Virus record (IMG/VR): IMGVR_UViG_2534681759_000007
DNA from: a virus
Lineage: Duplodnaviria; Heunggongvirae; Uroviricota; Caudoviricetes
DNA length: 20,997 nucleotides
Direction: 5' to 3' (one strand)
Part shown: in pieces, positions 4,919 through 20,997 of the stretch
Layout of the letters: every line of letters starts with the position of its first letter
Position numbering within the stretch: position 1 is the stretch's first letter
Made by a program: the position numbers and the translations under genes
Notes under the pieces: model-generated
What the model was told of the DNA's origin: nothing
The model's input: the letters and a program-made list of their open reading frames with translations, nothing else
The model's database searches: none

Positions 4919-6865
<1,947 letters not shown>

Positions 6866-16101: not shown

Positions 16102-16271
16102 TGGCTACACCGCTTATTCGTGTCATGAACGGGCACATTTACAGAGTACCAAATCGTCGTAAGCGTAAACCTGAGCTGAAGCCTTCCGAAATACCAACAC
16201 TGCTCGGATATACCGCCAGCTTGGTTGATAAAAAATGGTTGCGACTGGCAGCAAGGAGGAGTCATGGCTGA
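16101..16271 (+). CDS. ninE: NinE-family protein (56 aa)
   Basis: My own translation: [62 protein letters not shown] Shine-Dalgarno sequence; start overlaps the ybcN stop (TAATG) and its stop overlaps the ybcO start. Confidence 0.75.
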   Translation: MATPLIRVMNGHIYRVPNRRKRKPELKPSEIPTLLGYTASLVDKKWLRLAARRSHG

Positions 16272-16554
16272 TTTGAGAAAAGCAGCGCGTGGTCGGGAAT
16301 GCCAGGTAAGAATCCCTGGCGTATGTAATGGCAACCCTGAAACGTCTGTACTGGCACATATCCGGCTGGCTGGATTGTGCGGTACCGGTATCAAACCGCC
16401 AGACCTGATTGCCACCATTGCATGTTCTGCCTGCCACGACGAAATCGACCGCCGCACACATTTTGTCGATGCTGCATATGCAAAAGAATGCGCGCTGGAA
16501 GGTATGGCGAGAACACAGGTTATCTGGCTGAAAGAGGGGGTTATTAAGGCGTGA
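16264..16554 (+). CDS. ybcO: YbcO-like nin-region protein with a Cys/His metal-binding motif
   Basis: Start at [23 protein letters not shown]...[11 protein letters not shown] (96 aa); recognised as the DLP12 YbcO family. Confidence 0.8.
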
Positions 16555-16913
16555 ATACCTACAGCATCACATTACCCTGGCCTCCGAGCAATAACCGCTA
16601 CTACCGGCATAATCGCGGGCGCACGCACATCAGCGCAGAAGGGCAGGCATACCGCGATAACGTCGCCCGAATCATTAAAAACGCAATGCTGGATATCGGC
16701 CTGGCTATGCCTGTGAAAATCCGCATTGAGTGCCACATGCCGGATCGCCGTCGCCGTGACCTGGATAATCTGCAAAAAGCCGCTTTTGACGCACTCACTA
16801 AAGCAGGTTTCTGGCTGGATGATGCTCAGGTCGTTGATTACCGCGTTGTGAAGATGCCTGTTACCAAAGGTGGGAGGCTGGAACTGACCATCACCGAACT
16901 GGGAGATGAATGA
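16551..16913 (+). CDS. rusA: Holliday-junction resolvase RusA
   Basis: 120-aa ORF recognised as near-identical to E. coli RusA ([26 protein letters not shown]...[25 protein letters not shown]). Confidence 0.95.
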
Positions 16914-17050
16914 TGTTTGAGTCTTATATGGCAGAGCGTCTTCGCCGCCGCTGGGTGCGCCTGCGCTTATATCGTTTCCCCGGTTCTGTTTTGACCGATT
17001 ACCGAATACTGAAGAATTACGCCAAAACACTGACAGGAGCAGGAGTATGA
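16913..17050 (+). CDS. ylcG: YlcG-like small protein (45 aa)
   Basis: My own translation: [45 protein letters not shown]; its ATG overlaps the rusA stop (TGATG). Confidence 0.7.
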   Translation: MFESYMAERLRRRWVRLRLYRFPGSVLTDYRILKNYAKTLTGAGV

Positions 17051-17135
17051 AGTCAGAGATAACAATCAACTAATACTGTTTTGTTGATTTTTGCTTGTAA
17101 TTGGCGTTCTGGTCTGATTTTTGTGGAGTAAGTTG

Positions 17136-17519
17136 ATGCGTGATATTCAGATGGTTCTTGAGCGTTGGGGAGCGTGGGCGGCTAATAATCATGAAGATGT
17201 GACCTGGTCGTCCATTGCCGCCGGTTTTAAGGGATTAATTACTTCAAAAGTAAAATCTCGCCCGCAATGTTGTGACGATGACGCGATGATTATTTGCGGG
17301 TGCATGGCCCGTCTGAAAAAGAACAACAGCGATTTGCACGATTTATTAGTAGATTATTATGTAGTCGGTATGACATTCATGTCACTGGCAGGTAAGCATT
17401 GCTGCTCTGATGGTTATATCGGGAAAAGGTTACAGAAGGCTGAGGGCATAATTGAAGGGATGTTAATGGCATTAGATATCCGGTTAGAGATGGATATCGT
17501 TGTTAATAACTCTAATTAA
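17136..17519 (+). CDS. quuD: Late-gene antiterminator Q (DLP12 QuuD-like)
   Basis: 127 aa from the ATG at 17136 ([22 protein letters not shown]...), with Cys-rich segments ([18 protein letters not shown]). Lies downstream of rusA/ylcG and upstream of the lysis genes. Confidence 0.8.
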
Positions 17520-17708
17520 TATGCCAATTGTTTACTAAAAATTATTAAAAATGGGGCGTTGAGACGCCCCCAAAAATAAAGGGTAATATATAACAGAAGG
17601 TTTATATAGTTAGAAGCAAGGTTGTGCTCCTAAAGGAAGTGGCTTGAGGGAGCCACTTATATGTTGGGGAGGCAAAGCCTCCCGCAACATATCTTTTTCG
17701 TAATCAGA

Positions 17709-18806
17709 TTAGAACTGGTAAACCAGACCTACAGCAACGATGTCATCAGTGCTTACACCGAGTGCTTTAGTGAAGTCATTTTTGTCAAGCAGGTTGATTT
17801 TGTAATCAACGAAAGTTGACATATTTTTGTTGAAGTAATAGGTGGCACCTACATCAACATATTTGACTAAGTCCTGATCGCCCCATACTCCAAGATCCTT
17901 ACCTTTAGATTGCAGGTAAGCAACGGACGGACGCAGACCGAAATCGAACTGATATTGTGCAACAGCTTCGAAGTTTTGAGCTTTATTAGCAACGAAGTGA
18001 TCAGCAAATACAGTCATATTCTGGGTTTCAGAATAGGTAGTGGCCAGGTAAATGTTGTTAGCGTCATATTTCAGACCTGCGGCCCAAACTTCTGCATTTT
18101 TACCGGAAGCAAATACTTCAGGAAGAACTTTCCCTGCATTAACTTGAGTGTCGGTACGATCAGATTTCGCATAAGTTGCACCGATACCGAATCCTTCGTA
18201 TTCATAGGTAGCAGAGAAACCGAAGCCATCACCGTTACCTTCGGTGTAGTTATCGAAATCGCTACGATCGTTTTTGCCTTGGTACTGAGCAGCAAAGTTC
18301 AGACCATCAACCAGGCCAAAGAAGTCGTTGTTACGATAGGTTGCAACACCAGTGGTGCGACCAGTCATGAACACATCTGTTTGGGTCCAGGTATCGCCAC
18401 CGAATTCTGGCAGAACGTCAGTCCACGCACCGATGTCGTATGCTACACCGTAGTTACGGCCGTAATCGATGGAGCCGTAGTCACCGAATTTCAGGCCAGC
18501 GAAGGCAAGACGGGTTTTATCTTTGGAGGAACCTTGAGATTCAGCGCGGTTGCCTTTGAATTCATATTCCCACTGACCGAAACCAGTCAGTTGATCGTTG
18601 ATTTGGGTTTCACCTTTGAAGCCAAGACGGGCATAAGTAGTATCACCATCATCTGCATCATTAGAGGAGAAGTAGTGCTTAGCATTAACTTTCCCGTACA
18701 GATCCAGCTTGTTACTGTCTTTATTATAAATTTCAGCTGCCTGAGCAGACATCGCCATCAGTACTGATGCAGCTACAGCAGAAATTGCCACTGTTAATTT
18801 TTTCAT
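17709..18806 (-). CDS. nmpC: Outer-membrane general porin NmpC/OmpD-like, apparently intact
   Basis: Start at [23 protein letters not shown] (signal peptide) followed by [17 protein letters not shown]... and C-terminal ...VGLVYQF, i.e. hallmark porin N- and C-termini. Encoded antisense between Q and the lysis cassette. Confidence 0.9.
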
Positions 18807-19233
18807 CGTGAGCCCTTTTTTTGAACTATTATTAAAAAATGATGTCACTGCGCGATAAATATTCATCTAATCAATATGATTATTTCAAGATGTAAGTTTT
18901 GGTTTCTCGTTTGATTTGTGAAGTAGATCTCTATTTTTATCTGAACTTTTTTCTATCGAATCCTATTCATGGCTCTTGGCTGAATAAAAATAAATCTATT
19001 AGCCAATTTATATTAACGGTTGTTATTTATAAGTGCTCTATGATTTGAAGGTTCAATTTAAATCGGCTAAAAATAACACTGGAAATTATTTGTTGGTTAT
19101 TTGTTGAGATTTGCTTATGTATTTGTAGTGGTGTTTTCAATACTCGGTAGCATTCTCGCAAATATCATTTAGTGGTTTACGTACGTAAAAAATTGGTTAT
19201 GCTGTTAAGAGTGGTTACTTCGTCACACAGCTT

Positions 19234-19267
19234 AAACCCGCCGTCGAGCGGGTTTTTCCATTTTTTG
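19234..19267 (+). terminator. Intrinsic terminator upstream of the lysis cassette (tR'-like)
   Basis: GC-rich hairpin AAACCCGC-CGTCGA-GCGGGTTT followed immediately by a T-run (TTTTCCATTTTTT) on the plus strand, about 110 nt before the holin start. Confidence 0.6.
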
Positions 19268-19378
19268 AGTCTCGATATTAGCTGATAACCCAATACCTGA
19301 GTTATTCACTGACTCCGAGTCTGTTACGTTTCGTAGTATTCCCTCAATTTACACCCGCTTTGTCTGCGAGGTGGGGTT

Positions 19379-19594
19379 ATGAAATCCATGGATAAGTTAA
19401 CAACGGGTGTCGCCTATGGCACCTCAGCAGGTAGTGCCGGTTACTGGTTTTTACAGCTGCTCGATAAAGTCACGCCCTCACAGTGGGCAGCAATAGGTGT
19501 GCTGGGTAGCCTGGTATTTGGCCTGCTGACGTACCTGACAAACCTTTATTTCAAGATTAAAGAAGATAAGCGCAAGGCTGCGAGAGGTGAATAA
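19379..19594 (+). CDS. essD: Phage-21-type pinholin (S21-like) with dual-start motif
   Basis: 71-aa [29 protein letters not shown]... with two hydrophobic segments and a charged C-terminal tail; Met1/Met4 give the antiholin/holin dual start described for S21-type pinholins. Confidence 0.85.
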
Positions 19595-20091
19595 TGCCTC
19601 CATTATTACGAAAAGCCGTTGCTGCTGCTATTGGTGGCGGAGCAATTGCTATAGCATCAGTGTTAATCACTGGCCCAAGTGGTAACGATGGTCTGGAAGG
19701 TGTCAGCTACATACCATACAAAGATATTGTTGGTGTATGGACTGTATGTCACGGGCATACAGGAAAAGACATCATGCTCGGTAAAACGTATACCAAAGCA
19801 GAATGCAAAGCACTCTTGAATAAAGACCTTGCCACTGTCGCCAGACAAATTAACCCGTACATCGAAGTCGATATACCGGAAACAACGCGCGGCGCTCTTT
19901 ACTCATTCGTTTACAACGTGGGTGCTGGCAATTTCAGAACATCGACGCTTCTTCGCAAAATAAACCAGGGCGATATCAAAGGCGCATGTGATCAGCTACG
20001 TCGCTGGACATATGCTGGCGGTAAGCAATGGAAAGGTCTCATGACTCGTCGTGAGATTGAGCGTGAAATCTGTTTGTGGGGTCAGCAATGA
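19594..20091 (+). CDS. rrrD: SAR endolysin (lysozyme, T4-lysozyme-like fold, phage 21 R-like)
   Basis: 165-aa ORF with a Gly/Ala-rich N-terminal signal-anchor-release segment ([20 protein letters not shown]) followed by a lysozyme domain; start overlaps the holin stop (TAATG). Confidence 0.88.
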
Positions 20092-20186
20092 ACAGAGTAA
20101 CCGCGATTATCTCCGCTCTGGTTATCTGCATCATCGTCGGCCTGTCATGGGCTGTTAATCATTACCGTGATAACGCCATTACCTAC
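20088..20186 (+). pseudogene. Rz spanin gene truncated after ~33 codons by IS66-family insertion
   Basis: ATG overlapping the endolysin stop (ATGA); N-terminus [33 protein letters not shown] is a typical Rz signal-anchor. The frame then enters the IS end at 20187 and stops after 17 non-native codons. Confidence 0.65.
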
Positions 20187-20271
20187 GTAAGCGCATCATT
20201 TAAACCGTCTTTCGCCTCCCTTTCCTGTTTCCGATACTAATGTCCATTTTCGCAGTAAAAGGACATTTAAG

Positions 20272-20868
20272 ATGAATGCACGAAAGGCGGTACTGGCAGA
20301 TAACCCGGAATTGATCCTGCGTGTGCTACAGCTGAGATTTGACGAGTCACTGTCGTACCCGCGCATTTCTGCGCAGACCGGTGTCAGCAAAACCGCCATT
20401 TTTTCTCTGGTGAGGCGATTTCACCAGATATTCGCTGACTGGCCTCTTTCCGGTGAATATTCCTGCATGCAACTGGCCCGGGCTCTTTTCCCTGGGCGAT
20501 ATCCTTCAGCCCCGACAGTGACTCAGCCTGTGAAAACAGAGAAAATCCGCCGGAACCGATTTTCACCGGAGTTTAAATGGAGGCTTGTTCAGCAAACTCT
20601 TTTACCCGGTGCCTGTGTCGCACAAATAGCTCGCGAGAACGGAATCAACGATAACCTGCTCTTTAACTGGCGGCATCTCTGGCGTAACGGCGGCCTGCAG
20701 CCGCCCGGCGAACATGAAACATCGCTACTTCCCGTGACGTTAACGCCGGAGCCGGATAATAAAATCCCGGCACCAGTGCAAGACTACCTAGAACAGAATA
20801 AATACACTGCCAGACAGTCTGTGCTGCGAGCTGGTTCTGCCGGCCGGAACTCTCAGGCTGAAAGGTGA
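20272..20868 (+). CDS. IS66-family accessory protein (orf1/TnpA-like) with an N-terminal extension; 3' end possibly frameshifted
   Basis: 198-aa ORF; segment RRNRFSPEFKWRLVQQTLLPGACVAQIARENGINDNLLFNWRHLWRNG is the HTH typical of IS66 orf1 proteins. A different frame (20792-20926) encodes an ...LVLPAGTLRLKGELTPALLQTLIREMKGSSH tail that ends in the TGATG junction. Confidence 0.6.
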   Translation: MNARKAVLADNPELILRVLQLRFDESLSYPRISAQTGVSKTAIFSLVRRFHQIFADWPLSGEYSCMQLARALFPGRYPSAPTVTQPVKTEKIRRNRFSPEFKWRLVQQTLLPGACVAQIARENGINDNLLFNWRHLWRNGGLQPPGEHETSLLPVTLTPEPDNKIPAPVQDYLEQNKYTARQSVLRAGSAGRNSQAER

Positions 20869-20925
20869 ACTGACACCGGCGTTATTACAGACACTTATCC
20901 GCGAAATGAAAGGGAGCAGCCACTG

Positions 20926-20997
20926 ATGATATATCTCTCCCTGCCGGTTCGCGTATCTGGCTGGTTGCCGGTATCACCGATATGCGAAATGGCTTTA
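20926..20997 (+). CDS. Start of IS66-family orf2 (TnpB-like), partial and possibly frameshifted at codons 3-4
   Basis: ATG at 20926 in the TGATG overlap typical of IS66 orf1/orf2 junctions. A TnpB-like peptide ISLPAGSRIWLVAGITDMRNGF is encoded in a frame offset from this ATG. Confidence 0.35.
   Translation, partial: MIYLSLPVRVSGWLPVSPICEMAL

Follow-up and report, generated by a model that had tools for sequence, protein, structure and literature searches.

In phage lambda, late transcription starts at a constitutive promoter, pR', which lies directly after the antiterminator gene Q and yields a short terminated RNA, with Q loading onto RNA polymerase at a promoter-proximal pause; this placement of pR' right after Q is the canonical arrangement in lambda, 21 and 82. 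In phage 21, the Q-binding element (QBE) spans -25 to -12 and is built from a TGAGCA direct repeat whose two copies are 8 bp apart and are occupied by two protomers on different faces of the DNA (PMC6606751). In Shiga toxin (Stx) phages of the 933W/Sakai type, a PR'-StxS-tR' unit gives a short terminated PR' transcript in lysogens, with the toxin and lysis genes downstream (PMC7547250), and some Stx phages with other Q types are said to “lack the late promoter PR'” (PMC6266700, PMC10562709). For the DLP12 prophage of E. coli K-12, the model in place has the Q-like protein QuuD activating essD-rrrD-rzpD from a promoter (essDp) situated far from Q, within the nmpC-essD interval. Herein we examined the same locus in a 20,997-nucleotide (nt) stretch of Caudoviricetes DNA (IMG/VR virus record IMGVR_UViG_2534681759_000007; the whole stretch is referred to as the window), and consider it quite likely that a module of ~90 bp at 19176-19267 is the late-gene control unit (pR', Q-loading site and tR') of the QuuD-type Q encoded at 17121-17519. 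The module consists of the following parts:

19176-19181, + strand: -35-like hexamer TTTACG, inside the left half of the palindrome
19176-19189, + strand: 14-bp perfect palindrome TTTACGTACGTAAA, candidate Q-binding element, at a fixed distance from the -10 hexamer in all loci
19198-19203, + strand: -10 hexamer TATGCT, separated from TTTACG by a 16-nt spacer; TAnnnT in every family member
19206-19235, + strand: conserved core TAAGAGTG-N-CAC-N-AGCTTA, covering the start region and the first ~25 nt of the leader
19207-19212, + strand: candidate sigma-dependent pause element AAGAGT (-3 to +3)
19210, + strand: late-operon transcription start, the A of TAAG-A-GTG, from Cappable-seq
19219-19222, + strand: predicted pause at TTCG, by analogy with lambda pR'
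19234-19266, + strand: intrinsic terminator, tR' equivalent, with stem AAACCCGC/GCGGGTTT, loop CGTCGA and then TTTTT-CCA-TTTTTT

Compared with these systems, the unit proposed here follows the logic of lambda, in which the promoter is constitutively active, its RNA is short and terminated, and Q loads near the promoter. Lambda differs in that its Q comes from an unrelated protein family, its leader has 194 nt (versus ~47 nt here), its pause element lies at +1 to +6 and its promoter follows Q directly. The Q of the window shares the Pfam family PF06530 with Q21 and aligns detectably to the Q21 structures 6jnx and 6p18, with a distant match restricted to the N-terminal ~80 residues (phmmer, E 7e-7, residues 13-92); it is 30 residues shorter than Q21 and apparently without the long loop between the two helix-turn-helix (HTH) helices, the HTH itself being predicted from the Q family alignment. 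The phage 21 unit is likewise compact, with a terminator T-run that ends ~50 nt after the start (pR'-tR' unit recovered from IMG/VR loci; PMC6606751), and has its protein-binding element in the -35/spacer region, as proposed here. However, the window carries a palindrome at -34 to -21 instead of direct repeats, and since no TGAGCA is present in 19150-19210, its candidate element is not of the phage 21 type (a search with the 14-mer of the phage 21 QBE returned mostly noise and was filtered before use). Both units have a TAAG-containing element beside the start (TAAGCT in phage 21, TAAGAG in the window), and they differ in the position of the pause element (+2 to +7 in phage 21, candidate at -3 to +3 in the window) and in their distance from Q, which the phage 21 unit abuts and from which the window unit is 1.7 kb away. 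As regards Stx phages, the 933W/Sakai-type unit differs from that of the window in Q family and in sequence, whereas a window-type module is found upstream of stx2 in phages such as Stx2a_1447.

The module was delimited by comparison with other phages. When 18867-19378 was compared with phage records by sensitive blastn, only carriers of nmpC/lc matched over the full length (36 matches), whereas ~320 other records, including ~200 Stx-converting phages, match 19175-19257 only. In Stx2a_1447 and PhiR40_1, for example, this segment lies 3' of Q and of one or two reverse-strand genes, and 5' of forward late genes (methylase, tRNAs, stx2 or holin). The order and spacing of its parts are fixed across loci (palindrome, A/T tract, TAnnnT, G(T/A), TAAGAGTG, the dyad GTG..CAC and AGCTTA), and AGCTTA is followed by 5-25 variable bases and then by the GC-rich hairpin with its T-run, which forms the 3' end of the module. 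Across ~165 loci that we collected from IMG/VR and the GTDB Enterobacterales, the module lies downstream of, and on the same strand as, every QuuD-type Q gene examined. At least 120 IMG/VR contigs contain the exact 19-mer core GTTAAGAGTGGTTACTTCG. A PF06530-type Q is found upstream on the same strand in 100 of the 100 that extend far enough to tell; five of these loci have it 39-45 nt away, and the others 621-2921 nt away. The converse search, which started from Q in GTDB species representatives and used an nhmmer profile of the module, matched 67 of 80 loci, always downstream and on the Q strand (Escherichia, Shigella, Citrobacter, Trabulsiella, Pantoea, Xenorhabdus, Photorhabdus, Morganella, Yersinia, Serratia, Kosakonia and Buttiauxella); most of the 13 misses hold a diverged copy by inspection (Proteus, Pantoea, Xenorhabdus) and the remainder are truncated contigs, and all informative GTDB loci have the Q antiterminator upstream on the same strand. 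In ~35 genomes the stop codon of Q is adjacent to the module or overlapped by it. Since it is downstream of Q on the same strand throughout and adjoins it in these genomes, we read the module as Q's own cis-element, and adjacency of the two is the basic arrangement. Within E. coli, a near-identical copy is present in 2656 of 5426 complete genomes, i.e., about half, while the window holds no second copy of either the module or the palindrome. Some loci are recombinants in which a class-B palindrome is joined to a window-type terminator and holin class, with the junction inside the invariant core, which indicates that Q keeps the upstream half of the module and the late genes keep the downstream half. 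A separate observation concerns Serratia montpellierensis, where the promoter-leader-terminator unit is repeated ~8 times head-to-tail 3' of Q (loci L306, at 4965-5819, and L308), with a period of 109-112 nt and 85-88% matches; we know of no parallel to such an array of Q sites and terminators.

The palindrome, of which TTTACGTACGTAAA is the single occurrence in the window, differs between loci in step with Q. Its class tracks the class of the recognition helix in the C-terminal HTH of Q across the ~165 loci, with one exception, as follows:

SDG[HYT]IGK helix: TTTACGTACGTAAA (26 of 27 unique pairs)
SDT[HY]IGK helix: TTTACGATCGTAAA (14 of 14)
SDCWVGR helix: TTTACAATCGTAAA (both unique pairs)
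SDG[TS][IV]RK helix: GCGTACGC (all pairs)
(D/C/S)E(K/R)x(I/V)RI helix: GCGG(T/G)CCGC (all but one GCGTTCCGC variant and Yersinia L325, in which the module is poorly anchored)
GIS(H/L)N(Q/E)V helix: TGTTATAACA or GTAATTAC (8 of 8)
SEGKIRQ helix: TTTTCGTAACGAAA (a single case)

This pairing holds across at least 24 unrelated cargo inserts as well as in insert-free genomes, and Xenorhabdus loci with near-identical leaders differ precisely in having SDG with GTAC or SDT with GATC. Because palindrome class co-varies with the recognition helix, the palindrome is best read as a putative Q-binding element that would be specific to the cognate Q.

At the promoter, the inner letters of the -10 hexamer vary across the family while the TAnnnT pattern is kept (TATGCT, TATCGT, TAATCT, TACTGT, TAGTGT and TATTGT). 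The nmpC-essD interval of the window (18807-19378) shows few differences from DLP12 of E. coli K-12, in which the K-12 coordinate equals the window position plus 558019. In the Cappable-seq list of MG1655 (PMC4782308, supplementary file 1), a + strand transcription start site (TSS) at U00096.2 576452, corresponding to U00096.3 577229, falls on window position 19210, exactly 7 nt 3' of TATGCT and at the position predicted from the hexamers. The offset of +777 between the two genome versions was set by the purine starts it gives at 12 of 12 neighboring TSSs, versus 5-7 for other offsets. A consensus promoter scan with a threshold of 9 matching positions out of 12 missed this promoter, which has 8, and both the conservation and the TSS data were needed to recognize it. 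An alternative in which the A-tract serves as -10, with a start at ~19198 and TATGCT as the pause element, fits the Q21 geometry better than the model adopted here; it was rejected as the main start since the Cappable-seq TSS is at 19210 and none is listed near 19198.

A sigma-70 promoter and its start thus stand just upstream of a terminator, as in a lambdoid pR'-qut-tR' unit. The hairpin at 19234-19255 (AAACCCGCCGTCGAGCGGGTTT) has a 6-nt loop on a stem of 8 bp, 5 of them G-C, and is followed by TTCCATTTTTT, i.e., it combines the GC-rich stem, short loop and immediate U-tract (U5, CCA, U6) of an intrinsic terminator, with a fold of approximately -12 kcal/mol (centroid; -11.6 for the hairpin alone). 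Its orientation is that of the + strand, as the - strand has just three T after the stem. With 19210 as +1, the hairpin spans +25 to +46 and the U-run that follows closes at +48, with the T-run extending to +57; a leader RNA ending here would be ~47 nt long. As a bare pattern, the hairpin is not beyond chance (6 terminator-like sites in the whole scan versus 3.9 ± 1.9 in shuffles; z-score of -1.6 for the 61-nt fold), and it rises above the chance level because it is conserved across other genomes: hairpin and T-run are retained in 38 of 40 distinct IMG/VR leader variants, at +43/+44 or +55. In Xenorhabdus, Yersinia, Proteus, Morganella and others, the hairpin is present with a wholly different sequence (e.g., CCTCGCCTCGGCGGGG, CCTTGCCCCGTGCAAGG and CCCCGTTTTTACGGGG), and across the module loci it stands with its T-run 30-60 nt beyond the start, in sequences that are unrelated between genera. 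That hairpins differ by genus and yet persist suggests that selection acts on the terminator itself rather than on one sequence. In 21 IMG/VR loci (e.g., L005 and L055), the 3' arm of the terminator reads GCTGG in place of GCGGG (homologous to 19249-19253). An Rfam scan of 16800-19800 returned one hit only, a sub-threshold, terminator-driven Trp-leader (20.8 bits versus a gathering threshold of 41), and no match to an IpeX or StxS family.

These results bear on a sequence-only reading of the same DNA, which had described a hairpin and T-run ~110 nt before the holin, facing the lysis genes, with Q ending 1.7 kb upstream and nmpC in between. Both descriptions are accurate (the T-run is 112 nt from the pinholin start and on the + strand; the last base of Q is 17519, and the - strand gene nmpC spans 17709-18806). 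The reading had also taken the hairpin for the tR'-type terminator of the late operon, which is supported by the conservation of hairpin and T-run in the Q-linked module, and had offered as one option a late promoter within 18870-19230, far from Q, which agrees with the -35 at 19176-19181, the -10 at 19198-19203 and the K-12 TSS at 19210. Its more specific expectation for 18870-19230, namely an extended -10 promoter with a Q-binding element, held in part: a + strand promoter and a candidate Q element are there, but the promoter has no extended -10 and the element is a palindrome, not a direct repeat.

Between the start and the hairpin, the leader is unusually constant, with TAAGAGTG and CTTA invariant or nearly so in 35 diverse leaders. 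The candidate pause element AAGAGT retains the A and the T that are needed by sigma region 2, and AAGAGT-GGTTACTTCG resembles AACGAT-GGGTTAATTCG of lambda pR', where the pause is at the C/G of TTCG; by analogy, the pause in the leader of the window would be at +12/+13. The core also forms a dyad at 19206-19235, with outer arms TAAG/CTTA and inner arms GUGGU/GUCAC (GTGGT/GTCAC in DNA), which is paired in 92.7% of cells versus 24-47% in slid controls, with one covarying pair. The outer arm cannot act as RNA, since it lies upstream of the start, and covariation cannot separate an RNA structure from a DNA dyad because nearly all pairs are invariant; the dyad may be bound by a protein, fold as a 5' stem of the RNA or signal a pause. 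A CRP site annotated over the conserved core in the PA-2 record J02580 was considered and rejected, because its fit is limited to a TCACA half-site and phages without lc/nmpC keep the core as well.

From these elements we propose the following course of events. Sigma-70 RNA polymerase would initiate at A19210 from TTTACG-16 nt-TATGCT and, without Q, would make the ~47-nt leader and stop at the hairpin and U-run (19234-19257), leaving the holin and endolysin silent in the lysogen; the same hairpin would halt a strong cargo-borne transcript that starts at 18839. Once made, Q would bind the palindrome TTTACGTACGTAAA overlapping the -35 and engage the polymerase in the first part of the conserved leader, probably where AAGAGT sets a sigma-dependent pause near +12/+13, and the Q-modified polymerase would then pass the hairpin into the lysis genes. 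A fuller version of this scheme, which we put forward tentatively, has a symmetric (dimeric) Q on the palindrome overlapping the -35, with the SDG/SDT residue setting the GTAC/GATC center, a pause element that straddles the start so that Q engages polymerase at ~+12/+13, and a Q-pR' junction that serves as a slot for reverse-strand cargo expressed in the lysogen (porins, candidate defense genes) and insulated from late transcription; such a loading architecture is undescribed for lambda, 21 and 82. While an element of this kind is well known, the palindromic Q site over the -35, the pause-like element at the start, the Q-pR' cargo slot and the conflict with the placement of essDp are to our knowledge undescribed, and these particulars rest on comparative inference and one TSS dataset.

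Several points weigh against assigning late control to 19176-19267. Rueggeberg et al. (2013, 2015) reportedly ascribed Q-dependent expression in DLP12 to an RpoE-type promoter. Rueggeberg 2015 is the source given in PMC7918800 for a regulatory region “-121 to +650”, and the primers listed for it there (Table S1) put +1 at ~18855. The TSS at 19210 is weak (relative read score of 1.7) and comes from a single dataset, and the Term-seq tables (PMC7815308) list no 3' end at K-12 57726x-57728x, where a weak promoter and low expression are possible reasons. The GCTGG form of the terminator is common in nature and lowers the stability of the stem from approximately -12 to approximately -6.7 kcal/mol, and prophages that carry it may have more leaky lysis-gene expression. 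There is no canonical TAnnnT pause element between +1 and +20, and the best candidate, AAGAGT at -3 to +3, has a position that is undescribed for lambda, 21 and 82. The sole exception to the helix/palindrome pairing, L258 from Photorhabdus cinerea, combines an SDGH helix with a GATC-centered palindrome, and the correlation could partly come from tight physical linkage, since the palindrome adjoins Q in many genomes. Finally, Q binding, pausing, termination and read-through at 19176-19267 are all inferred.

The Open Reading Frame (ORF) listing and Pfam scans show that the window is a lambdoid late-control region of the DLP12/PA-2/434 type, and phage 434, PA-2 and many temperate coliphages share this 2.5 kb at 90-99% identity. 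The surrounding features are:

16225-16554: ybcO
16551-16913: rusA
17121-17519, + strand: Q antiterminator gene, QuuD type (Pfam PF06530, E 4e-53)
17520-19175, - strand: reverse-oriented cargo cassette, made up of the nmpC/lc coding sequence, its 3' hairpins and the AT-rich upstream region 18807-19175
17709-18806, - strand: nmpC/lc porin coding sequence, intact (Pfam Porin_1 PF00267, E 1e-156)
18839, + strand: strong constitutive TSS toward the lysis genes (-10 TATTAT at 18827-18832; Cappable-seq U00096.2 576081, score 90)
19379-19594, + strand: S21-type pinholin (Pfam PF04971, E 2e-35)
19594-20091, + strand: signal-arrest-release (SAR) endolysin (Pfam PF00959, E 3e-45)

In the K-12 annotation, Q begins with the ATG at 17136. 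In the record of phage 434, an antiholin/holin and a SAR endolysin are annotated at positions homologous to 19379-20091. A GC-rich inverted repeat (CACCCGC...GCGAGGTGGGG, 19340-19385) overlaps the ribosome-binding region of the two start codons of the pinholin (S71/S68), which is the position where a dual-start control structure is expected. Further downstream, the homology of rzpD to K-12 ends at 20186, at about codon 33, and the DNA beyond it (20187-20997) opens with GTAAGCGC, presumably akin to an IS66-family terminal repeat, and contains a gene (20272-20868) for an HTH protein of transposase type (PF01527). An insertion sequence thus interrupts the spanin genes of this prophage.

The 1.7 kb between Q and its module is explained by the nmpC porin cassette, which is inserted backwards between Q and the promoter. 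The sequence-only reading had labeled 18867-19378 an AT-rich late control region, a label that does not fit most of this interval: the AT-rich stretch 18867-19175 has 29% G+C (versus 45% in the window and 41% in the module at 19176-19267), 18807-19175, likewise of 29% G+C, is found only in the nmpC/lc-carrying phages, where the PA-2 record J02580 annotates lc and CRP sites in it, and the ~320 other matching records share 19175-19257 only. We conclude that 18807-19175 is nmpC's own control region and not late control. The strong TSS at 18839 is divergent to nmpC, 33 nt ahead of its start codon, and 16 nt from the +1 deduced for essDp (~18855); since the 19234 hairpin is the sole + strand terminator-like site between 18839 and the holin, a transcript of ~400 nt from this start would end there. 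On the Q side of the cassette, the gap before nmpC contains, at 17659-17700, a + strand hairpin and T-run (ATGTTGGGGAGGC-AAA-GCCTCCCGCAACAT followed by ATCTTTTT; -22.7 kcal/mol) at which transcripts coming out of Q would end. It is flanked by - strand terminators, one of which (17553-17570, GGGGCGTCTCAACGCCCC followed by ATTTTT) is positioned for nmpC and for the reported IpeX RNA region. In related phages, the Q-to-module junction holds at least 24 unrelated cassettes, all but one of them made of reverse-strand genes (IMG/VR loci L003-L124). Among them are a KAP-NTPase that matches the PADLOC model PDC-S20 (E 2e-176), an OLD/Gabija-like ATPase beside a probable cytosine C5 methyltransferase (the latter assigned by sequence motifs), and many pairs of a soluble protein of 250-350 aa and a multi-pass membrane protein of ~150 aa, several of which match no library. 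Late transcription that resists terminators does not sweep a reverse-oriented gene placed ahead of pR', and in the lysogen such a gene can use a promoter of its own.

Two other placements of the late promoter were weighed against the module. The published essDp (RpoE-type, +1 at ~18855), or the sigma-70 start at 18839, could be the Q-responsive promoter, with the hairpin overcome from there and the start at 19210 incidental. In its favor, the PMC7918800 primers for the region “-121 to +650” map to 18734 and ~19504, which gives the +1 at ~18855, an RpoE-like TGAACT-N16-TGTCA is present at 18822-18847, and the + strand Cappable-seq start at 18839 is far stronger than that at 19210. We nevertheless judge this unlikely, as the essDp +1 falls within the nmpC cargo, 355 nt upstream of 19210, in DNA (18807-19175) that is absent from many phages of the same Q class with other or no cargo, whereas the module is present in all; no evident Q-class-specific element occurs near 18839-18855, and the position at ~18855 does not travel with Q across related phages. 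Being cargo-specific, the essDp DNA cannot be a general Q-utilisation site, and the comparative data favor 19176-19267. The second placement is a pR' right after Q (17520-17708), from which Q-modified polymerase would cross nmpC antisense, as the sequence-only reading had allowed, and for which the hairpin would be just another terminator. Although this is the canonical arrangement of lambda, 21 and 82 and the 189-nt gap could house a promoter, it is extremely improbable for this locus: the gap shows no promoter-like site in our scan and no + strand TSS in the K-12 Cappable-seq list; the window has no second palindrome or module that could serve it; the gap is already occupied by the -22.7 kcal/mol hairpin and by nmpC's - strand terminators; and in Stx2a_1447 only 21 nt separate Q from the reverse-strand cargo.

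Other explanations concern the function of the hairpin and the leader rather than the site of initiation. That the hairpin is mainly an insulator against cargo read-through from 18839, with no dedicated link to Q, gains from the fact that this strong start has no other + strand terminator before the holin. However, the hairpin stands at an equal distance from the conserved start in cargo-free phages and in those with at least 24 other cargo types, which makes a primary insulating role very unlikely, and insulation is more likely an added benefit. The ~47-nt promoter-terminator transcript might also be a functional small RNA, similar to StxS or lambda 6S RNA, in addition to antitermination control. 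This would explain the near-invariant leader, which is conserved from +1 to +25 far beyond what a spacer needs, and a small 5' stem (+2 to +17) is mostly kept; StxS arises in this way in Stx phages (PMC7547250). On the other hand, the Rfam scan gave no family match beyond the sub-threshold Trp-leader driven by the terminator, the leader stem shows almost no covariation, and the conservation could reflect pausing and Q-loading signals instead, so that we regard such a role as rather unlikely.

With 19176-19267 taken as the late-control unit, the late transcription start is fixed for prophages of the DLP12, PA-2 and 434 types, the true unit of late control is set apart from the regulatory DNA of nmpC, and the published placement of the Q-responsive DLP12 promoter is called into question. 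The pairs of recognition helix and palindrome provide a natural specificity series for studies of Q-DNA recognition. For the ~200 Stx-converting phage records that match the module, a late-promoter candidate is now available within it, and knowledge of the promoter, Q site and terminator should aid the prediction of toxin inducibility in the Stx phages that carry this module.

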